A DNA stretch of 64,000 bases, from assembly GCA_002436415.1 (NCBI GenBank), contig DJMA01000012.1, positions 90,345 to 154,344 of the forward strand, written 5' to 3'. Each line of letters begins with the position of its first letter. The stretch's first letter is position 1. The stretch is from Bdellovibrionaceae bacterium UBA6502 (GTDB lineage Bacteria; Bdellovibrionota; Bdellovibrionia; Bdellovibrionales; UBA840). Below are positions 722 through 40,356 of this stretch, piece by piece. Both the position numbers and the translations under genes were made by a program. The notes under the pieces are model-generated. The model searched no databases. It had not been told where the DNA came from and was given only the letters and a program-made list of their open reading frames with translations.

Positions 722-2113
722 TTAGGACTTAAAATCCTCTTTAAATATCTGGTGCTTTTTCATCAAATTATTCAACTGTCTTTCACTAATTCCTGCACGC
801 TGGGCCGTTAGATTGATTTTCCCTTCTGTCTCACTTAGGAGCTCTACAAGGTACTGCTTTTCAAAGACTTCTGAGTTTCTTGCCCTAGCACTTGCTAAAC
901 TCAATTCTGTATCAATGGCAAGAATCGATTGTTTATCAACAGCTTCAAAAATCTCCATTGGAAAACTACCAGAGCTTAATTGATGGGACCTTTCTAAAAT
1001 AAAGGCTCGCTCTACTAAGTTTTCTAATTCACGAATGTTTCCCGGCCAGTTGTATGATTTTAGCGCCAACAAACTACTTTCTTCAATGCCATTAATTTTT
1101 TTAGAATGCTCTGAGGAAAGCTTCTCGAGAAGAGTTAAAATTAAGGATTCAATGTCTTCAGCTCTATCTCGTAATGCTGGTACATCCACTGGAAAAACAT
1201 TTAGGCGATAGTATAAATCTTTTCGAAATTTATTTTGCTCCACCAAGTCCTTTAAATTTTCATTGGTGGCGGCGATTACTCTAACATTTACTTTAATGTC
1301 AGACTCCCCTCCAACCCTTTGAAAGATAGAATCTTGCAATACCTGCAAAAGCTTAACTTGAGCTGCGGCACTTAAAGTAGAAATCTCATCTAAAAAAATG
1401 GTTCCTTGATTGGCTAGTTCAAATTTTCCTAGCTTTCTTTTGATAGCACTGGTAAAAGCACCCTTTTCATGACCAAAAAGTTCACTCTCGATCAAACTCT
1501 CAGAAATAGCTCCACAATGTACATGGATAAATTGTCGGTCTTTTCTCTCACTATGACGATGGATTAACTTAGCCATCACCCCTTTACCAACGCCAGTTTC
1601 CCCATTTAACAAAACGATAGAGTTGGTTGGCGCAACCTCTTTGATCATATCGTATATTCGCTTCATTTTAGGATTCTTAGTAGAAACCAGATCATAATCA
1701 TCTGATCGCCAGAACAAGTCTCGCAAAGAGTCTAATTCTGCCTGCCTTCTTTCTTGAACGATATTACGCTCCGTTAAAAGCTTCCACTCTGCCATATCGA
1801 CGGGATGAGTTAAATAATCCACGGCACCTAATTTTATTAGTTCAATTACGTCTCGAATATTATCATTGTCAGCCAAGACAACCAATTGAACTCCAGGACG
1901 CTTTGATTTGATGTTCTTATATTGCTCCGCAGCTGCATCTACAGAACTGCCAAGAAACTTAAACTCCCAAAAAACTAGATCAAAACTCTCTTCGTCAAAT
2001 TTCTTAAAAGCCGTAGGCGGATTGGCTGCTAAAACCACTTCAATAGTTTCCGAAAAAACCTGGTCGGTTTTACTTAAAGCATCTTGTTTATCCGTAGCAA
2101 TTAAGACCTTCAT
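722..2113 (-). CDS. sigma-54-dependent transcriptional activator (NtrC-family bacterial enhancer-binding protein) with an atypical receiver domain
   Basis: AAA+ sigma-54 interaction domain with Walker A GETGVGKG and ESELFGHEKGAFTSA (GAFTGA-loop variant). C-terminal Fis-type HTH (LTAQRAGISERQLNNLMKK). N-terminal CheY-like fold. AAGGAG RBS upstream of the ATG. Confidence 0.9.
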   Translation of the reverse strand: MKVLIATDKQDALSKTDQVFSETIEVVLAANPPTAFKKFDEESFDLVFWEFKFLGSSVDAAAEQYKNIKSKRPGVQLVVLADNDNIRDVIELIKLGAVDYLTHPVDMAEWKLLTERNIVQERRQAELDSLRDLFWRSDDYDLVSTKNPKMKRIYDMIKEVAPTNSIVLLNGETGVGKGVMAKLIHRHSERKDRQFIHVHCGAISESLIESELFGHEKGAFTSAIKRKLGKFELANQGTIFLDEISTLSAAAQVKLLQVLQDSIFQRVGGESDIKVNVRVIAATNENLKDLVEQNKFRKDLYYRLNVFPVDVPALRDRAEDIESLILTLLEKLSSEHSKKINGIEESSLLALKSYNWPGNIRELENLVERAFILERSHQLSSGSFPMEIFEAVDKQSILAIDTELSLASARARNSEVFEKQYLVELLSETEGKINLTAQRAGISERQLNNLMKKHQIFKEDFKS

Positions 2114-2255: not shown

Positions 2256-2271
2256 TGGCACCTAGCTTGCT
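2256..2271 (+). promoter_or_regulatory. sigma-54 promoter TGGCAC-CTAGC-TTGCT
   Basis: Exact -24/-12 consensus. It lies 36 nt upstream of the ATG at 2307 and is divergent from the activator gene at 722-2113. Confidence 0.8.
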
Positions 2272-4185: not shown

Positions 4186-5151
4186 ATGAAAACCCTATTT
4201 AGAGAATTAGAGAAAGTATATCGTTTAGTTGATAAGGTAAACGGACATGGCCGCGTCGAATTACTTGGCACTGTTGATGTGAAAGCACATCGTTTACCTA
4301 TTTATGGATTTCAATTTGGCTCAAAAGATCCAACGGCTCCAACCTTTGGACTCTTTGGTGGTTTACATGGCCTTGAAAAAATTGGTACAGAACTAGCGGT
4401 TTATTTTTTGTATAACCTAGTTGAGCGTCTTGAATGGAATAAGCAATTACAAGAACTACTCGAAAAAATTCGCGTTGTTTCCATCCCTCTTTTAAATCCA
4501 GGTGGAATGTATCTTGGAACTAGGTCCAATCCCAATGGTGTGGATCTAAACAGAAACTCTCCTTCCACCAGTGATGGAAAAAAACTATTTCTCGCTTCAG
4601 GTCATCGCCTAAGCCCTAACCTTCCATGGTATGGCGGTGTCAAAGACAAGTTAGAGTTTGAGAATGAAATCCTAGTAGAGTTTGTTAAAAAAAATATGCT
4701 CAACGCAAAGTTCTCATTGGCTTTAGATTTACACTCTGGTTTTGGCGTTAAAGATCGCCTCTGGTTTCCATACTCAAAAACCTCCGAGCCCTTCCCTTAC
4801 TACGACATTGCAAGCCGTATAAAAAATTTAGTCGACTCCAATATGAAGCACCATATTTACCAAATTGAACCTCAGGCTGATAGCTATATCATTGAAGGAG
4901 ATATTTGGGATCATTTGTTTGATATCCACTACAACACCAAAAATCATAAAGAGGATATCTTCGTTCCTTGGACTTTAGAAATGGGTTCGTGGATTTGGGT
5001 TAAGAAAAACCCTCTTCAGTTAATGAACATTGATGGAATGTTTAACCCTTACCGAGAGCATCGTTTTAAACGTGTAATGCGAAGGCATTGGCGCTTACTT
5101 GACCTTTATATGAATCTCTGTGCCAATCACGAGGGATGGTTGTATGAATAA
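4186..5151 (+). CDS. M14-family zinc carboxypeptidase-like protein (DUF2817-like)
   Basis: GGLHGLE (HxxE zinc motif) and NPNGVDLNRN, both typical of M14 peptidases. Confidence 0.7.
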   Translation: MKTLFRELEKVYRLVDKVNGHGRVELLGTVDVKAHRLPIYGFQFGSKDPTAPTFGLFGGLHGLEKIGTELAVYFLYNLVERLEWNKQLQELLEKIRVVSIPLLNPGGMYLGTRSNPNGVDLNRNSPSTSDGKKLFLASGHRLSPNLPWYGGVKDKLEFENEILVEFVKKNMLNAKFSLALDLHSGFGVKDRLWFPYSKTSEPFPYYDIASRIKNLVDSNMKHHIYQIEPQADSYIIEGDIWDHLFDIHYNTKNHKEDIFVPWTLEMGSWIWVKKNPLQLMNIDGMFNPYREHRFKRVMRRHWRLLDLYMNLCANHEGWLYE

Positions 5152-5881
5152 AATATTGTTACTTCGCGGCTTAGGAAGAGAAAAGCTGCACTGGAATGAT
5201 GAGTTTCTAAATTCTTTAAAAAGAAAAGGCCTCGAGCCAATTTGCATCGATCACCCAGGCGCTGGTGACTATCGACAAATTCTAAGCCCTATAGAGATCG
5301 AAGACTATGTCGCTTTTTTACAAACCCAATTTGAAGAACTGGGTTTAAGCTCAGAAAAAATATACCTCTTAGGCCACAGTCTAGGTGGAATGGTTGCTTT
5401 ACGTTGGGCCTACGAATATCCGGAACAATTCCATAAAGTATTTTTACTCAACACCAGTGATGGTGCTAGCTTAGCTTTTCCACTAAGACTTAAACCTTTT
5501 GGACTAAGACAGATTTTTAAAATTCTAAGTTCAAATGAAATTAGCAAGAAAGAAACTGAGGTACTAAATATGATTAGCAATTCACCGAGCGAACGGGACA
5601 AATACCGTACTCGTTGGATTGAGCTGGCCGCTAGACGCCCCATAAAAAGTATCAGTCTAGTAAACCAGGTGATTGCCGCCTCTCGTTTTCAAGCACCGAA
5701 AAGCCTTGAAATCCCCGCTGTATACTTATGCAGTACCGCTGACAAAATGGTTTCCCACAAATGCAGTGAAAAACTAGCCAAACTGCACAAAGCAAAAATT
5801 TATAAGCACGATAAAGGTGGGCATGATTTAGCACTAGATGCACCAGAATGGCTTTCGGATCAAATCAGTAACAACATCTAG
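5120..5881 (+). CDS. alpha/beta hydrolase
   Basis: Nucleophile elbow GHSLGG. The likely true start is the ATG at 5144 (MNKILLLRGLG), which overlaps the upstream stop by 8 nt. Confidence 0.75.
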   Translation: MPITRDGCMNKILLLRGLGREKLHWNDEFLNSLKRKGLEPICIDHPGAGDYRQILSPIEIEDYVAFLQTQFEELGLSSEKIYLLGHSLGGMVALRWAYEYPEQFHKVFLLNTSDGASLAFPLRLKPFGLRQIFKILSSNEISKKETEVLNMISNSPSERDKYRTRWIELAARRPIKSISLVNQVIAASRFQAPKSLEIPAVYLCSTADKMVSHKCSEKLAKLHKAKIYKHDKGGHDLALDAPEWLSDQISNNI

Positions 5882-28982: not shown

Positions 28983-29106
28983 GTGTATATAAGATTAACA
29001 GCCATTAAATTTTATAGTTATATCAATTACTTAGCTAGGAAAACTCACATTTTTTTAAAATACGTCTAGATTTCTCCCCCTAGCCTTTACATAGTTTCAT
29101 ACTGAA

Positions 29107-29121
29107 ACAAAGAATGTGCCA
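29107..29121 (-). promoter_or_regulatory. weak sigma-54-like site TGGCAC-ATTCT-TTGT
   Basis: The reverse complement of 29107-29121 has a perfect -24 box, but the -12 element is GT rather than GC. It lies about 140 nt upstream of the ATG at 28964. Confidence 0.25.
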
Positions 29122-29169: not shown

Positions 29170-29185
29170 TGGCACCCTATTTGCT
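29170..29185 (+). promoter_or_regulatory. sigma-54 promoter TGGCAC-CCTAT-TTGCT
   Basis: Exact consensus. It implies that the real start codon is the ATG at 29210, not 29192. Confidence 0.8.
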
Positions 29186-33779: not shown

Positions 33780-35864
33780 ATGCGTTCATTATTTCTAATT
33801 CTACTTTTGCAGGCTTTTATAGTCTCATGTGCCGGACCATCAAATGATGACTCCACCAACGAGAATCCAAATACGGAAAATCCCGTAGATAATTCCCCTG
33901 GAAACTCTGAACCACAACCAATCATTGCACCGGAAATAATATCACCTATTAGTGATTTAGGACCCGCTAGTACACACAATTTGTCTTTTCAATGTAGCAG
34001 TAGCTGTGAGTATCGTTTTTCATACCAAAGCACAGCCAATATCGATTTGTCTGCTTTAAACTATGCTGCAACAAACTCTTACGAACTTAGTCCAGCAACT
34101 GGTACCTATTATTTTGCCATTCAAGCAAGAGATACGAACAATCAACTGGAATCTAGTATCATAGAAATCCAAATTGAAATTGATAAAGACGCGCCCTCAA
34201 GTGTTTCGAACCTTAGTATTGACTCTGAACAAACAGAAACAAGAAGTCCTTCCGCTAGCTGGGATTTAGCTACAGACAACACAAGCATCTCTCATTATGA
34301 ATTATCTGTCGGTACAAGCCCTGGCGGTGCAGAGATTCAAAGCTATACAAACATAGGTAATTCAAACACTGGTTTTCTCAGTCAGTTACAACTCGAAGAC
34401 GCCATTGATTACTATTTAAATGTCAGAGCAGTAGATATTGCTGGTAACCAAGGACCCGTTATCTCTAGCTCTGCTTGGAATATTCCCGGAGCTCCCTACC
34501 CTGTAGACTCCTTAGCCCTAAGAAAAATATCTCAAACAGAAATAGAAATTGGTTGGTCGGCCCCTAATAATAACGGCATTGCGATTACGGATTACTACAT
34601 TGACTATCGTTTGGCAGAACCTGCAGGCAACAACTGGACAAGTCTCAATGATGCCGTCAGCACGGATACTACAGCTAAAATTAGTGGCTTGAGCCCATCT
34701 ACTAAATACCAATTTCAAGTAAGAGCTTACAATGGAACAAGTAGTTTAGGCTCCAATGTTTTAGAGGCAGAAACAGCACCAGAAGACCCATTTTTTGAAC
34801 CGAATTATTTTAAAGCAATGAACTTAGGTGGTGCTAGCAAAAGCATCCTTGTTGCATGGGAAGATTCCACTGAAATATTTTTGAACGACGCCACTAGCAT
34901 TGTGTTAAATGCCGCTGAAACCTATGAATTCGACTCTAATCTTGGTGACGTTTTAAAGTCAGAAAAATTCTTCTTCGTATCAGGACGCTTAACAAACGGT
35001 AGCGCTGGAAACAATGATGTAAGCCGAAATGCAAATATCGTATGGAGCTCTCCTGACTGGGCAGGTAAGGACTTTCTTTTTACTGGTACAAGAAACGCAG
35101 ATCATAGAGTTAGCGTTTATTCCTTCGAGGATAGTAGCGTAGAATTATTCGATGGAGATAGTTTGATAGAACAAATCAACTTAAACGCAGGTGATTTCCA
35201 CCAATTTAGCATCTCCTATCATGGTGGCTTTCAAATCAAAAGTGATAAACTAATCCTCGCCTATATGTACTCTGGTGGCGATGAATATGCAATCGATCCA
35301 AAGCCCCTTCTTCCTGCTAGTTTTGATATATTAGGGATTCCATCTAGGAGTGTTAAAATCACAACTTCTAGTAACACTGCTACTGCTAATTTATATCACT
35401 CAGACTCTTTTACTAGTCAGCTACAATTGGCTGCTGGGTCTGAGAAGTCTGTAAATGGACGAGGAGTGATAGGTCTTTACAAAGAAAATGCCTTGCGAAT
35501 TCGATCCACAGAAGAACTAGTGGCAAACTCAAATGCTGACGCCAACGGCTATTGCTCAGCGCCTTTTGTTCCAACTTCTTTATTAAAGAAAAAATTTATC
35601 GTGAATGCTAAGATCGACTTCATTGCATTTGCTTCACTACAAGCGGGAGACATCACTGTCGAACTTCCAGATGGAAGTACATCATTAATTCCTTTAGAAC
35701 GAACGGGAGATGAAGCTTTTGCTCCCTTTAAGGCAAGAACTTCAGGAGTTCCAGCAGGTACGAAATTTTATTCTTCCACTCGCTTTCAAGCTTGGTATCA
35801 AGCGAATGGAAATACTGATTCTATTGCTGATGATGATGAAACAATATTATTTGGTTTTGACTAA
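33780..35864 (+). CDS. surface lipoprotein with fibronectin type III-like repeats
   Basis: Lipobox IVSC. FN3 signature (EIGWSAPNNNGIAITDYYIDYR...YQFQVRAYN). Confidence 0.75.
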   Translation: MRSLFLILLLQAFIVSCAGPSNDDSTNENPNTENPVDNSPGNSEPQPIIAPEIISPISDLGPASTHNLSFQCSSSCEYRFSYQSTANIDLSALNYAATNSYELSPATGTYYFAIQARDTNNQLESSIIEIQIEIDKDAPSSVSNLSIDSEQTETRSPSASWDLATDNTSISHYELSVGTSPGGAEIQSYTNIGNSNTGFLSQLQLEDAIDYYLNVRAVDIAGNQGPVISSSAWNIPGAPYPVDSLALRKISQTEIEIGWSAPNNNGIAITDYYIDYRLAEPAGNNWTSLNDAVSTDTTAKISGLSPSTKYQFQVRAYNGTSSLGSNVLEAETAPEDPFFEPNYFKAMNLGGASKSILVAWEDSTEIFLNDATSIVLNAAETYEFDSNLGDVLKSEKFFFVSGRLTNGSAGNNDVSRNANIVWSSPDWAGKDFLFTGTRNADHRVSVYSFEDSSVELFDGDSLIEQINLNAGDFHQFSISYHGGFQIKSDKLILAYMYSGGDEYAIDPKPLLPASFDILGIPSRSVKITTSSNTATANLYHSDSFTSQLQLAAGSEKSVNGRGVIGLYKENALRIRSTEELVANSNADANGYCSAPFVPTSLLKKKFIVNAKIDFIAFASLQAGDITVELPDGSTSLIPLERTGDEAFAPFKARTSGVPAGTKFYSSTRFQAWYQANGNTDSIADDDETILFGFD

Positions 35865-35872
35865 TAAGAGGC

Positions 35873-36211
35873 TTATTTTAATTTCGCTTTGGAAATTCTA
35901 TGAACATCATTCATATTCATTTCCATGCGAGACAAAGCCTTATCCGATCTGTCGATTTGATTACGCATGAAGCGCACTAAGTCATAGGAAGACAAATGCA
36001 TCGCTGGACTGATATTAAAAGAGCTTGCCGGTTCTTTTTCTGAATTGATTTTTAAACCGATCATCTTTTGAATATTTACGAATTCTTTGTTCTCTTTTTG
36101 CATCTCTTCCTCACTGGTCTTTTGGCTGGTAATAATGCTATCTCTAGCAGTACTCAAATAAAACTTAAATTTTCTTACATTTGTTATAATTTTCTTAAAC
36201 CTAATATTCAC
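35873..36211 (-). CDS. hypothetical protein
   Basis: ORF overlapping the stop of the upstream matrixin-like gene by 11 nt. I recognise no family. Confidence 0.45.
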   Translation of the reverse strand: MNIRFKKIITNVRKFKFYLSTARDSIITSQKTSEEEMQKENKEFVNIQKMIGLKINSEKEPASSFNISPAMHLSSYDLVRFMRNQIDRSDKALSRMEMNMNDVHRISKAKLK

Positions 36212-36842
36212 AACTTAAAGCAGCTAAATCTTGCTCCGTTGGTTCTCTTCTCTCATCGAAATTCGTGGCTAATTCCGGGTACATAACACTTTCTACCTCA
36301 TCCACATGAGCCAATCCTAGGGCATGTCCAATTTCATGAACAATCAAAGCAACCAAATCCACTCGTCCGTATCTGGCTTTATCTACAAAGAAATTGTGGT
36401 CATCTTCATTAATTCCGATGCTGGCCGTATAGATGTTATTTCCGCGCCATTTAATCAATGTTCTGGCTTGTTCTCTTGAGAGGCCTTCCTCCCAATCATA
36501 TATCCATAGAATCTTGATATCCATTTCACCGATTTGTGACTCAGGCAAGATTCCGTAGAAATCAAAAATTTCGTAGCCTAAAGCGTTTTCCCAATTGATC
36601 AAGGCCTGCTCAATGGCTCTAACATAGTCGGCATCGTAAATTCCTTCTCTCACTCCGACTTTCAACTTCTCTGTTGTTTTCCAAGAAACTCTCTGTTTTT
36701 GCGAGTTCATCACGAAATCACAACTTTCCTGAGGAGCTATGGTGTCAGTACAGGCTACAAGCCAAGTCATAACTAATAGTAGACTGATGCTGGTTTTAAT
36801 TTTGGTTTTCCAATTCGTAATCAAAATGCTTTTCCTCCGCAC
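36201..36842 (-). CDS. matrixin-like (M10/metzincin) zinc metalloprotease lipoprotein
   Basis: HEIGHALGLAH zinc motif plus an SVMYP Met-turn. Lipobox LVAC. Confidence 0.8.
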   Translation of the reverse strand: MRRKSILITNWKTKIKTSISLLLVMTWLVACTDTIAPQESCDFVMNSQKQRVSWKTTEKLKVGVREGIYDADYVRAIEQALINWENALGYEIFDFYGILPESQIGEMDIKILWIYDWEEGLSREQARTLIKWRGNNIYTASIGINEDDHNFFVDKARYGRVDLVALIVHEIGHALGLAHVDEVESVMYPELATNFDERREPTEQDLAALSCEY

Positions 36843-37428
36843 CCTCTTTTATTTCAAGAGCCGGGCCAAGACCTAAAAAACCAAAGACTCTAATCGTAAG
36901 CATCTGAAAATACTAAACTTTTTAAATACATCCGCAATTTTTCCAAGGAAAACGATTAAGGCTGGGGCTGTTAGTGAATTTTTACCAGAACAAGGTGAAA
37001 TCTATAACACACTGAAATCACTGATTTATTTCAATATGTTATTTTATAACAGGAAAGTTACAAAAAACGCCACCTAGAAAACGCCTTATAAATAAATATA
37101 CTTTTTAGTGCTGAGAAATAGAATAGCTCTAATTACCGGACCTCCTGTCCAATATTTTGGACAAGTCTCTCTGAGAAAGTTTAAATCTTTCTAGGCGCTT
37201 TGAAGCTTGTTTTTTTAGAATCAAAGCCTCTAAAATTAGAATAAATAACAAAACCTTATATAAGAGCTCATCAAAAGCTATTTACCCCACATACAAAGCC
37301 ATTCTATCCAGTTTAATTATGGCACCAGCCAAGACCTAGGTCGCACAACGCACCTCCTTCAACTGAAAAATAGCTCAATTTTAGTATATTCATGAAATAA
37401 ATTCGTGTCAGAGTGGCACTCATAAAGC

Positions 37429-37444
37429 TGGCACCAAGCTTGCT
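37429..37444 (+). promoter_or_regulatory. sigma-54 promoter TGGCAC-CAAGC-TTGCT with no downstream gene
   Basis: Exact consensus. A second TGGCAC box lies at 37414-37419. No credible ORF or RBS lies downstream. Confidence 0.75.
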
Positions 37445-37454
37445 CTATATAAGG

Positions 37455-37712
37455 CTATCACCGGCTCTTCGCCACGATCGTGGAGACCAACAGAGCCACC
37501 TATCCTACCTAACTTTACTTGTCATCCAGTGGGAGAAAACTCTCCCGCTAGGTCGTATCTTTAAAATGAAAAAATTACACACCCCTTTTTCACTCCCTGA
37601 TAAAGCTTCTCTAAGACTGTGTCTTCCTAGAAAGCCTGTCTGATCAATGGGCTCCAAAAAAAACTTCCCCAGCAAAAATCAAAAAAAAAGAGATCCCAGT
37701 GGATCTCTTTTG
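37455..37712 (+). ncRNA. candidate sigma-54-dependent small RNA (~260 nt)
   Basis: The interval runs from the predicted TSS to the terminator at 37689-37711. Internal hairpins are GGCTCT(37463)...CCACGATCGTGG(37472-37483)...AGAGCC(37492) and GGGAGA-AAAC-TCTCCC (37531-37546). Confidence 0.35.
37681..37712. terminator. bidirectional rho-independent terminator
   Basis: AGAGATCC-CAGT-GGATCTCT is flanked by A9 upstream and T4 downstream. It serves the minus-strand response regulator gene and the plus-strand orphan transcript. Confidence 0.8.
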
Positions 37713-37735
37713 ATAAATTTATTTAAAAAAATACT

Positions 37736-38443
37736 TTAGTGTTGGACTCCGCTTAAACCAGCAAAACGATAGCCAACACCACGAACGGTTTGAATATCAT
37801 CTCCTCTACCGCCTAATTTTTTACGAAGAGCAGCCATATGCACATCAATGGTTCTGTCTGTTATGCTTAAACGTCCAAGAACTTTTTCTCGCAATTGGTC
37901 ACGAGATAAAACTCTTCCAGCCTGCATTAATAACTCGCTAAGAAGCTTAAACTCAGTAAGAGTTAATTTCACTTCCTCTTCATCAACGAAAACTTTGTGA
38001 GCTGAAAAATCCACTACTAAATTGTGATTTACAAGTTGGTTTGGACGATTTGTAGCTACTAATGTACCTTTAGTCCTTCTAAGCACTGCACGAATTCTTG
38101 CAGCAAGCTCTTTAGACATAAAAGGCTTTGTCACATAATCATCCACACCAGAGTTGAAGGCTTCTAGTTTTTCGCCCTCTCCACCGAGACCGGTAACCAT
38201 AATCACTGGAATATCTGAAAAGTTTGAATCATTTCTTAGGTCTCTAAGAACATCGATTCCCATTTTTCCTGGCATCAATTGATCTAGCAAAATAATATCT
38301 GGATTGTATTTGGTAACTACATCCATAACCGAATCACCTCGGTCGCAGGTATAAACTAAAAATCCTTGATTGATTAACTTTTGTGATAGTAATTCACGAA
38401 TGTCTTGTTCGTCTTCAACCAAAAGTACTGAGATTTCTTCCAT
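37736..38443 (-). CDS. OmpR-family response regulator (canonical receiver)
   Basis: LLVEDE, DIILLDQLMPG, VIMVTG and DYVTKPF. Winged-helix C-terminus (TVRGVGYRF). Confidence 0.9.
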   Translation of the reverse strand: MEEISVLLVEDEQDIRELLSQKLINQGFLVYTCDRGDSVMDVVTKYNPDIILLDQLMPGKMGIDVLRDLRNDSNFSDIPVIMVTGLGGEGEKLEAFNSGVDDYVTKPFMSKELAARIRAVLRRTKGTLVATNRPNQLVNHNLVVDFSAHKVFVDEEEVKLTLTEFKLLSELLMQAGRVLSRDQLREKVLGRLSITDRTIDVHMAALRKKLGGRGDDIQTVRGVGYRFAGLSGVQH

Positions 38444-38709
38444 CTTTAAACGCCCCTAACAAAAAGCCAATAATACTCTAAAGCACATTCAATTAGTTTT
38501 CAATTATCTTCTAAAAAGAATAACTATTTATAAATAATTTTAGTACTACTTAGCAATACCTTGCAATATACCCAGCTTTCAGAATTTCGCAAGTGATGTA
38601 AACCAAATTGGTTATTTAACTGGGCTTTTGTTCGCTTTTCAGAGCCATTTGACCTTTCAAAGAGCAATTGTTTACAAGATGTTTAAAAATGCCACCTGGC
38701 GGTAATTTC

Positions 38710-39621
38710 TCAGTGCAGGGCGTTTTTCCTAACTTCCTCTAAAAGCTCAGTTAAGCGCGATTTATCTACCGAATACTGTTTACTACAAAACTCACAAGTT
38801 ACTTCTGCGCCATTTTCTCTAGCTAAAAGTTCCTGGATATCATTTTCTGATAAAAATAAAATCGAACGCTCTACCTTTTCTTGCGTACATGTACATGAAT
38901 AACTAAGTTCATGCTCATGTTCGATCTCCATCAACTCGATTCCTTTTAAAAACTCTTCTAGAATTTCTTGTTCGCCGCCGCCATCAACCAAAATTTTTGA
39001 TAGCTCTTTTGCGTTTTTAACATTTTCTTCGAGAGTTTTAATCTCTTGCTCAGTATGCCCAGGCATTAGCTCAATGATTAAACCACCCGCTGCTGTCAAA
39101 AGGCCATACTCGTTAATATGCTCTCCTAAAGCTACTACGGAAGGAATTTGATGAGACTGCTGTAAATACCAAGCAATGTCAGAACCTATTTCACCGGTTT
39201 TAATAATAACCGTTCCATTGAAAGGTTGTTTTTGGTAAGGCAAAGTTCGCACAACATTTAAAAGCCCAACTCCAATTGCTGAACTAACATCGATTTTTCC
39301 ATCTTTTAAAGCAAGATCAAACTGTGGATTAGCAATATAGCCACGCACACTTCCCTCAAAACTTGCTTCCACAAACAGCTCGCCAATGGGACCATTACCT
39401 TGAAAGTGTAAGCCTGTTTTTCCATTCTTTGCCTGTGAAGCCAAAAGGCAAGCAGATAAAGTTGCCCTTCCCATAGCAACACTAGCAACAGGACTCATAT
39501 TGGGGTGAACATTTTGTAACTCGGCGATCAGTTGCTGGGCAATTACACAAGATACCCTTACTGTGCCTGACTTCGATAAATATTTTTTAACAATGTCGTG
39601 GTTTGGTAGTGCCTGACTCAT
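38710..39621 (-). CDS. hslO: redox-regulated chaperone Hsp33
   Basis: Hsp33 N-domain pattern and the C-terminal zinc centre CTC...CEFC. Confidence 0.9.
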   Translation of the reverse strand: MSQALPNHDIVKKYLSKSGTVRVSCVIAQQLIAELQNVHPNMSPVASVAMGRATLSACLLASQAKNGKTGLHFQGNGPIGELFVEASFEGSVRGYIANPQFDLALKDGKIDVSSAIGVGLLNVVRTLPYQKQPFNGTVIIKTGEIGSDIAWYLQQSHQIPSVVALGEHINEYGLLTAAGGLIIELMPGHTEQEIKTLEENVKNAKELSKILVDGGGEQEILEEFLKGIELMEIEHEHELSYSCTCTQEKVERSILFLSENDIQELLARENGAEVTCEFCSKQYSVDKSRLTELLEEVRKNALH

Positions 39622-39774
39622 ATACTTTAGATTACCTTATTTTTTCCTATTAATGTAGTTGATCTTAATATTTTATTTCATACGGCAAATTAGGCTGACT
39701 AGGCTAGAAAGTTTTGTTTCAATGCAAAAATTATTGAGTCTATCTTATATTGAGACAATACAGAGGATAAAACT

Positions 39775-40356
39775 ATGATTCAAAATATTTGGTGCATTGG
39801 TCGATCTTACGCAGAACACGCAAAAGAATTAAACAACGAAATCCCTGACACTCCCTTGATATTTTTAAAATCTGGGGCTTGCGCCGAAATAAATTTGAAT
39901 GAAATAAAATTACCCAATATAAAAGATGAATTTCATTACGAACTAGAGCTAGCTCTACGCTTTGGAGCTAAGCTTGAATTTGACGCCTATACTGTAGCCA
40001 TTGATTTAACCAATCGCTCCGCCCAAGAAAAGCTTAAAGCAAAGGGAAAGCCTTGGACTTTGGCAAAAAGTTTTAAAGGCGCCTGTCCTTTAGGAAATTG
40101 GCATAGTCTTCACAAGCAGGATTTAAAAAATATTGAGCTTGAACTAATTATTAATGGAGAAACAAAACAAAAAGCCAATACAAAATTACTCTTGTTTCCT
40201 GTGGAAGAAATGCGTCAATACCTTTTAGAAAACTTTCCCGTCCAAGAAGGCGATGTCTACCTTTCAGGAACTCCTGCTGGCGTAGGACCTTTACGAAAAC
40301 AAGACGAGCTAATTGCCAGAGTGGCTGATGTAGAAAAAAGATGGACGGTCATTTAG
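39775..40356 (+). CDS. fumarylacetoacetate hydrolase (FAH) family protein
   Basis: CIGRSYAEHAKEL, YELELA and GTPAGVGPL blocks. Confidence 0.85.
   Translation: MIQNIWCIGRSYAEHAKELNNEIPDTPLIFLKSGACAEINLNEIKLPNIKDEFHYELELALRFGAKLEFDAYTVAIDLTNRSAQEKLKAKGKPWTLAKSFKGACPLGNWHSLHKQDLKNIELELIINGETKQKANTKLLLFPVEEMRQYLLENFPVQEGDVYLSGTPAGVGPLRKQDELIARVADVEKRWTVI

Follow-up and report, generated by a model that had tools for sequence, protein, structure and literature searches.

A gene-free spacer separates a gene for an M10 (matrixin) peptidase from a gene for an orphan OmpR-type response regulator in the 64,000-nucleotide (nt) stretch of the genome of Bdellovibrionaceae bacterium UBA6502 analysed here (the window; contig DJMA01000012.1). 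Inside this spacer, an exact sigma-54 promoter stands directly before an element of ~110 nt with the features of a structured RNA gene. A preliminary description of the window had pointed to a gene-free region of about 890 bp, measured here as 893 bp, and had placed in it an orphan sigma-54 promoter driving a structured transcript of ~260 nt without an open reading frame (ORF). The structured RNA gene behind the orphan promoter is borne out by comparison with related genomes, in which promoter and element are conserved together and the stems covary; its proposed length is not. The coordinates of all features are collected in Table 1. The surrounding DNA is AT-rich, with 30-47% G+C over positions 35000-40000.

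The conserved RNA core

Orthologous loci were fetched by synteny with the response regulator protein as the query. Four of them (L001-L004) belong to the same species as the window and have 98% identical DNA. The comparison was made with ten genomes whose regulators are 85% to 55% identical (L005, L006, L008, L010, L011, L013, L014, L016, L020 and L022) and with L017, which was added through a DNA pattern scan of species-representative genomes and brings the other genomes to 11. L017 is the nearest other species and the reference for the identity figures of core and flanks. The closest named relatives, by regulator comparison and by pattern scan, are metagenome-assembled genomes (MAGs) labelled Bdellovibrionales or Bdellovibrionota, and the window's regulator protein also turns up in Tara Oceans and other marine assemblies. 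About 100 more regulator orthologs, 52-57% identical, were listed, and L022 shows that the conserved module reaches to this level of identity.

A homologous element is present in 11 of 11 other genomes. Homology spans the promoter and continues to ~110 nt past the predicted start. Within the core, identity to L017 is 98-100%, compared with ~84% for the flanking protein genes and 46-80% for the rest of the spacer. Between 37551 and 37700 it drops to 54-72%, and this tail stretch is missing in L006, L008 and L005. The conserved unit is thus ~110 nt long (37453 to ~37565) instead of the ~260 nt first proposed. In L006 and L008, the regulator gene's terminator lies within ~10-15 nt of the last stem, P3. 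In L005 alone, the regulator and RNA genes are separated by an inserted 269-amino-acid (aa) ORF (4715-5524 of that locus, plus strand), the best similarity of which is a weak match to solute-binding proteins (E = 0.0096). Because the stop of this ORF directly adjoins the U-run, the RNA of L005 can be no longer than ~115 nt.

The hairpin that the preliminary description had taken as the transcript's terminator (AGAGATCC/GGATCTCT) belongs to the response regulator gene instead. It registers in the terminator scan when read on the minus strand, where 9 T follow, and not on the plus strand, which has TTTT only. It could still stop read-through from the RNA gene, giving a minor ~260-nt species.

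A 121-nt sequence comprising the core folds at -32.5 kcal/mol (z = -3.6 compared with shuffles). Its consensus structure consists of a nested pair of stems (P1 enclosing P2), an unpaired linker and a third stem, P3, followed by a U-run. Both stems of the preliminary description were recovered. The GGCTCT/AGAGCC stem around the palindrome CCACGATCGTGG is P1, and it covaries; the GGGAGA-AAAC-TCTCCC hairpin, with its GGGAG-loop-CTCCC arrangement, is the top of the longer P3. The linker, which carries a C/U-rich stretch (37497-37514), is unpaired in both the minimum-free-energy and the consensus folds. Its CUACC is invariant in eight close homologs and is found in L013 and L014 as well, with CAACC in L011 and CCACC in L022. 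A U-run follows P3 in all homologs, after a gap of 5-7 nt in the sigma-54 clade and immediately in L013 and L014.

Base pairing is maintained through sequence change. In an unfitted MAFFT alignment of the eight close homologs, pairing is kept in 96.4% of cells, a share that falls to 37-51% if the partners are shifted by 1-3 columns, and compensatory double changes occur in four pairs. P1 alternates between C-G, U-A and U-G, and P2 changes an A-U to a G-C pair in L008 and L020 (CCACGAUCGUGG to CCGCGAUCGCGG). Both arms of P3 are invariant in the eight close homologs apart from one U-G to U-A change, around a loop of 4 to 7 nt, and the stem shows compensatory changes in L011, L013 and L014. A covariance model (R1) built on the eight homologs scores 125 bits at 37453-37565 and finds one copy in the whole window and one in each related locus. 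R1 also picks up the diverged homologs of L011 (38 bits), L013 (32 bits), L014 (19 bits) and L022 (15 bits), all of them in the spacer between the regulator and M10 genes. In the 11-sequence alignment fitted to this model, 13 of 21 pairs show double changes, and 0 of 500 shuffles reach the observed values. Conservation and covariation together make us highly confident that 37453 to ~37565 on the plus strand is a real conserved structured RNA gene.

Three further structural elements were considered and dropped. A third small helix after P3 (CGY..RCG) is only 2-3 bp long, too weak and inconsistent. Long-range pairing of GGYU in the 5' arm of P1 with GGYC after P3, proposed by RNAalifold on a poorly aligned 11-sequence MAFFT alignment, is without true compensatory changes and clashes with the better-supported P1. 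Dimerisation of the RNA through the palindromic GAUC loop was also rejected, the loop not being palindromic in L010, L016 and L013.

In the window, as first described, the RNA and response regulator genes converge, and they do so in 9 of the 12 genomes overall. The RNA gene is inverted in L011 and L014, where the strand-specific CCUACC-type motif flips along with it, and convergence is therefore not essential.

The absence of coding potential, also claimed at the outset, holds across the homologs. No ORF is common to them on either strand, and those that overlap the core vary in frame, length and sequence; on the sense strand, L020 has no ORF at all over the core and L010 has one of only 14 aa. 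No start codon lies at Shine-Dalgarno distance from GGGAG. A 76-aa ORF at 37413-37643 was rejected as a gene, because it begins upstream of the promoter and is not conserved. A test for a small-protein gene found no conserved ORF with a ribosome-binding site among the homologs. A test for a cis-regulatory leader or riboswitch found no regulated gene downstream on the same strand: the next gene is on the opposite strand or, in L014, is the M10 gene, which has its own sigma-54 promoter after the U-run.

Rfam 15, in which described sigma-54-dependent sRNAs such as Qrr and GlmY/GlmZ should be represented, gave no match at the gathering score anywhere in the window. At E <= 10 the region 36800-37800 gave chance-level matches only, the highest-scoring of which, a histone 3' stem-loop, had 20 bits where the cut-off is 34. 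BLASTN against plasmid and phage collections gave no match, and a mobile-element origin is rejected on that ground. Literature searches found no description of this RNA. A scan of 185,579 species genomes with the pattern CTACC..CCAGTGGGAG..CTCCCRCTAGG returned only two MAGs, one of them already among the compared genomes. Of two scans of JGI metagenome contigs, the first returned none and the second one match (L019), a high-GC chance match that was rejected on reading; these collections evidently lack Tara contigs. The RNA is previously undescribed and is no member of the known families of enhancer-dependent small RNAs (sRNAs), given the lack of a covariance-model match, its different architecture and the absence of an adjacent activator gene.

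Table 1. Features of the spacer and its neighbours, by position in the window
Feature	Position	Strand	Remarks
~76-aa small ORF	35873-36103	minus	3' of M10 peptidase gene
M10 (matrixin) peptidase gene	36201-36842	minus	
Gene-free spacer	36843-37735		893 bp; between M10 peptidase and OmpR-type response regulator genes
Sigma-54-like box TGGCCC-GGCTC-TTGAA	36853-36868	minus	before divergent M10 peptidase gene; -12 is GA instead of GC
Palindrome TGTCCAATATTTTGGACA, TGTCC-N8-GGACA	37146-37163	none	~275 bp upstream of RNA promoter, ~310 bp upstream of M10 gene
Second upstream dyad TTATGGCACCAGCCAAGACC, TGGC-N4-GCCA	37319-37340	none	~105-110 bp before promoter
Second TGGCAC	37414-37419	plus	15 nt upstream of main box, which it overlaps; with AAGC (37425-37428) gives GG-N10-GC spacing
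Sigma-54 promoter TGGCAC-N5-TTGCT, TGGCACCAAGCTTGCT	37429-37444	plus	exact match to TGGCAC-N5-TTGCW
Non-coding RNA core, ~110 nt	37453-37565	plus	5' single strand, P1/P2, linker, P3, spacer and U-run
P1, GGCUCU/AGAGCC	37463-37468/37492-37497	plus	encloses P2; RNAalifold
P2, CCAC-GAUC-GUGG (CCACGATCGTGG)	37472-37483	plus	4-nt loop; perfect DNA palindrome
Unpaired linker with CCUAUCCUACCUAA	37498-37525	plus	CCUACC at 37504-37509; candidate seed for base pairing
P3 (CCAGUGGGAG, loop, CUCCCGCUAGG)	37526-37552	plus	10-bp hairpin with one bulged A
Spacer UCGUAUC and U-run UUU(AAAA)	37553-37565	plus	likely 3' end of conserved RNA
Non-conserved tail up to hairpin	37566-37712	plus	would be transcribed through read-through only
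Hairpin AGAGATCC/GGATCTCT	37686-37711	minus	terminator of response regulator gene
OmpR-type response regulator gene	37736-38443	minus	orphan

The sigma-54 promoter, upstream sites and neighbouring genes

The promoter is exact, as the preliminary description had it, with the -24 GG at 37430-37431 and the -12 GC at 37442-37443; transcription is predicted to start at ~37453-37456. The 64 kb of the window contain four exact copies of the sigma-54 pattern. By shuffling, 0.09 ± 0.29 copies would be expected, and none of the 100 shuffles had as many as four. The other three exact boxes, at 2256, 21667 and 29170, each have a GGGAGAG-type ribosome-binding site and an ATG 25-45 nt downstream. Since each of them precedes a gene with a strong Shine-Dalgarno sequence, this type of box is in real use in this organism. 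Alone among the four, the promoter at 37429 has no gene behind it.

A sigma-54 box on the same strand and at the same position is present in seven other genomes (L017, L005, L020, L006, L008, L010 and L016), the regulators of which are 81-85% identical or, in L017, closer. It takes the form TGGCA(C/T)-N5-TTGCT, stands at a constant distance from P1 and has homologous sequence downstream. In L022, where regulator identity is down to 55%, the box is a variant (TGGTCT-N5-TTGCT), again with CTATAGG after it. Promoter and downstream element are thus conserved together in eight genomes with the canonical box, the window included, and in L022 with the variant. The RNA promoter is probably sigma-54-dependent in this genome. 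A second TGGCAC box noted earlier is indeed found 15 nt upstream, but it is not conserved beyond the nearest subclade, where it reads TGGCAC in L017 and TGGCTC in L016; the corresponding position reads TGACTC in L006, CGACAC in L008 and TGACAC in L010.

Two dyads upstream of the promoter are candidate binding sites for a regulator. The palindrome TGTCCAATATTTTGGACA, suggested from the start as a possible enhancer, has its single exact match in the window at this position and is conserved as GTCC-N8-GGAC in the orthologous spacers of L017, L005, L006, L020 and L022. The motif is unique to the spacer in L017, L005, L006 and L022, and the second match in L020 is a terminator hairpin. L016 has a form with one mismatch and L008 a degenerate form, read by eye from the spacer. 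This palindrome is a candidate regulator or enhancer site. The second dyad, TTATGGCACCAGCCAAGACC, lies ~105-110 bp upstream of the promoter, the classical distance for the site of an enhancer-binding protein. Dyads at the same distance were read by eye, without statistics, in L006 (GTGGCACTTTGCCAC), L005 (TGGTG..CACCA), L020 (TGGTGCGTTAATACACCA) and L010 (GTATCAATATGATAC). Between the RNA gene and the M10 gene of L011 (4420-4515), four tandem copies of a ~24-bp unit, GGGTGGCAGACACCAAATGAAAAT, each contain a dyad GGTG-N5-CACC. These units may be a reiterated activator site.

The spacer also carries a sigma-54-like box on the minus strand, before the divergent M10 peptidase gene. A sigma-54-type box stands before the M10 gene in most genomes: it is canonical (TGGCAC-N5-TTGC) in L013 and L014, reads TGGAAC/TGGAAT-N5-TTGC in L010 and L011, and has TTGT variants in L006, L008 and L017. 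This distribution suggests that the M10 peptidase gene depends on an enhancer and that its promoter and the RNA promoter form a divergent pair. The spacer as a whole looks like two divergent enhancer-dependent promoters with shared upstream sites, although the -12 GA of the window's M10 box is off consensus.

The single sigma-54 activator gene in the window (722-2113, minus strand) lies 35 kb off, beside another sigma-54 promoter. It encodes an NtrC-type enhancer-binding response regulator with REC, Sigma54_activat and HTH_8 domains and a GAFTSA loop variant, and is divergent from the exact promoter at 2256-2271 (plus strand), which serves a small gene starting at 2308. Elsewhere in the window, a box with one mismatch at 29106-29121 (minus strand, TGGCACATTCTTTGTT) and the exact box at 29170-29185 (plus strand, TGGCACCCTATTTGCT) form a possible divergent sigma-54 pair, ~50 bp apart.

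The order of regulator gene, spacer, M10 peptidase gene and ~76-aa small ORF is preserved in 11 of 11 other genomes. This block, RNA gene included, is intact despite rearranged flanks in L006 and unrelated flanks in L022. In L006 (4001-6433, compared with 35873-38443 of the window), the whole block of regulator, RNA and M10 genes and 76-aa ORF has the opposite orientation with respect to its Hsp33/PutA and fn3-protein sides. The ~76-aa protein is encoded invariably after the M10 peptidase gene in all loci, and a Pfam search with it gave no match. The protein may act together with the M10 peptidase or inhibit it.

Between the stop of the M10 gene (36201) and the start of the 76-aa ORF (36103), a motif TGTAAGAAAATTTAAGTTTTATTT ... 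TAGCAT (~36135-36185, minus strand) is kept in nearly all relatives. The window and L017 are 98-100% identical over this region, compared with ~84% for its coding neighbours. The motif consists of two direct repeats, TGTAAG and TTTAAG, 11 bp apart, before a -10-like element. It resembles an OmpR/PhoB-type response regulator box and may be a binding site of the adjacent orphan regulator.

Mode of action and alternative explanations

We favour, with moderate confidence, the reading that this locus is a sigma-54-driven gene for a ~110-nt trans-acting sRNA, conserved in a family-level clade of uncultured marine Bdellovibrionota, with transcription, 3' end, activator and base pairing all predicted from the DNA. 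An activator encoded elsewhere in the genome would bind an upstream dyad, either GTCC-N8-GGAC at ~-275 or TGGC-N4-GCCA at ~-110, and open the sigma-54 closed complex at the promoter, because transcription by sigma-54 needs an ATP-dependent enhancer-binding activator. The ~110-nt RNA would then be made from ~37454 to the U-run at ~37563, which probably ends the transcript after P3. Any read-through would be halted at the response regulator gene's terminator (37712). Since the opposite strand of this spacer has a sigma-54-like box before the gene for the M10 lipoprotein peptidase, both transcripts may switch on together. Once made, the RNA would most likely act in trans, with the unpaired CCUACC of the linker as the seed for pairing with target messenger RNAs (mRNAs). 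Action by base pairing through the linker is put forward tentatively.

Several observations weigh against this reading or parts of it. The distant homologs L011, L013 and L014 have no recognisable sigma-54 box before the RNA, so that dependence on sigma-54 characterises some members of the family but not the RNA as such. Sigma-70 promoter scans of these homologs found a well-placed candidate only in L011 (TTGTCA-17-TAGATT) and nothing recognisable in L013 and L014. None of the relatives has a gene for an enhancer-binding protein near the locus, and the terminator scan flags no canonical terminator after P3. No more than 12 distinct sequences underlie the covariation, and the 11-sequence alignment leans towards the model, its distant homologs having been aligned by R1 itself. 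Searches with the linker were negative as well. Its complementarity to all ORF starts in the window gave no consistent signal, and comparison with the 5' regions of the regulator, M10 and small-ORF genes in the 12 genomes gave nothing above shuffled controls. GGTAGG is not enriched, with 19 sites in 128 kb (both strands of the window) compared with ~31 expected for a random hexamer by simple arithmetic. The preliminary description had proposed that the C/U-rich stretch pairs with G-rich Shine-Dalgarno sequences. The stretch is there, unpaired and with an invariant CCUACC, but the proposed role is unsupported: its complement is GGUAGG, not GGAGG, and no target was found. Lastly, the arms of P3 are invariant in sequence while its loop varies, which leaves room for recognition by a protein.

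This last point leads to the main rival, a protein-binding decoy or scaffold RNA in which the P3 stem, the CCUACC linker or both are recognised by a protein, as in GlmY (RapZ) or CrcZ (Hfq/Crc). The constraint on the P3 arms in the eight genomes with a free loop exceeds what pairing alone needs, and the failure of the target searches in the window and neighbouring genes fits such a role too. However, there is no repeated motif of the CsrB/RsmZ or CrcZ kind, only one CCUACC and one P3 per RNA, and in L011, L013, L014 and L022 the sequence of P3 differs while its pairing stays; we consider this explanation unlikely. A long read-through transcript of ~260 nt or more might instead act in cis on the 3' end of the response regulator gene, by convergent transcription or as an antisense RNA. 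The prevailing convergent arrangement would suit this, and with P3 not being a textbook terminator, read-through is plausible. Such an action is difficult to reconcile with the inverted orientation in L011 and L014 and with the 269-aa ORF that lies between the two genes in L005. The stretch from P3 to the regulator gene is moreover not conserved, ranging in length from ~10 nt to >600 nt, and a strong bidirectional-type hairpin stands between the two genes. A role in cis is accordingly improbable.

The two other explanations dispense with a functional RNA of this kind, and both are highly improbable. One is that the element is the remnant leader of a decayed protein gene, or a micro-protein gene, as might be thought from the window's other three sigma-54 promoters, which all serve protein genes, and from short frames of 25 aa and 30 aa downstream. 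Decay would predict the opposite of what is seen, a core more conserved than the neighbouring genes. The two frames, the only ones downstream, lie in the non-conserved tail that L006 and L008 lack, neither has a Shine-Dalgarno sequence, and the homologs share no frame, length or peptide on either strand. The other is that the conservation reflects DNA-level sites only, operators or recombination sites in a shared regulatory spacer, with no RNA involved. CCACGATCGTGG is a perfect DNA palindrome, and the spacer does hold other conserved DNA sites such as GTCC-N8-GGAC. Yet the stems change sequence while staying complementary, including strand-specific U-G to U-A changes, and the P2 palindrome varies at its centre (AGTC, GACC, ACTC). 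Where the element is inverted (L011 and L014), the CCUACC motif, which is strand-specific, is inverted too. A promoter lies directly upstream in 9 of the 12 genomes.

Beyond the sigma-54-driven sRNA itself, a wider arrangement can be imagined, though it is speculative and on the unlikely side. One enhancer (GTCC-N8-GGAC) would fire both divergent sigma-54 promoters and form a compact, lineage-wide control module of marine predatory Bdellovibrionota. Its outputs would be the M10 lipoprotein metalloprotease with its conserved 76-aa partner and, as the post-transcriptional arm of the same response (e.g. to prey contact or nutrients), the sRNA. The orphan OmpR-type regulator might feed in through the separate box before the 76-aa gene. 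The RNA gene would have been kept in place while flipping its orientation and changing its promoter class between sigma-54 and sigma-70.

Comparison with known enhancer-dependent RNAs

RNA regulators of Bdellovibrio-like predators are, to our knowledge, almost wholly undescribed, and none are known from the uncultured marine relatives of this group. The locus adds a covariation-supported RNA family with defined boundaries, promoter class and candidate enhancer sites. The family is common enough in Tara Oceans assemblies for a check against metatranscriptomes that already exist. It is also a naturally occurring example of an RNA gene whose promoter class differs between sister clades. No concept is changed by it; it is a solid new example and not a new principle.

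Among sigma-54-dependent non-coding RNAs with upstream activator sites are GlmY and GlmZ (GlrR/QseF) and CrcZ (CbrB). Their main mode of action is protein sequestration by means of repeated or specific motifs, with RapZ sequestered by GlmY and Hfq/Crc by CrcZ. In some species, GlmY has overlapping sigma-54 and sigma-70 promoters, a duality that resembles the difference in promoter class between clades seen here. In contrast to GlmY/GlmZ and CrcZ, the present RNA has no such repeats and no Rfam match.

The Qrr1-5 RNAs of Vibrio (LuxO/sigma-54) are trans-acting sRNAs of ~100 nt with an enhancer-binding response regulator, a conserved unpaired seed and a 3' hairpin. The present RNA is likewise short, with a sigma-54 promoter, a conserved unpaired stretch that is here a candidate seed, and a 3' hairpin (on Qrr sRNAs, see also bioRxiv 10.1101/2021.07.01.450815). 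It differs from them in matching no Rfam Qrr model, in being present as a single copy in 64 kb, in its seed and in having no LuxO-type gene adjacent.

The nearest analogue comes from the myxobacteria, which were formerly grouped with Bdellovibrio in the Deltaproteobacteria. In Myxococcus xanthus and other members of this group, the ~108-nt intergenic RNA Pxr has multiple predicted stem-loops and an apparent sigma-54 promoter (PMC5568312). Its gene keeps one genomic neighbourhood across genera, directly downstream of the presumed activator gene nla19 (PMC5568312). The two RNAs are alike in size, in their multiple stem-loops, in their predicted sigma-54 promoters and in their fixed neighbourhoods. 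Unlike pxr, the present gene has no enhancer-binding-protein gene nearby, its neighbours being the OmpR-type regulator and M10 peptidase genes in 12 of 12 genomes. Its architecture of nested P1/P2, linker and P3 is also different, and it has no Rfam match even at E <= 10. By analogy of its predicted promoter and form, the RNA belongs functionally with the enhancer-dependent sRNAs Qrr, GlmY, CrcZ, NrsZ and Pxr, and would add one more lineage to that short list.

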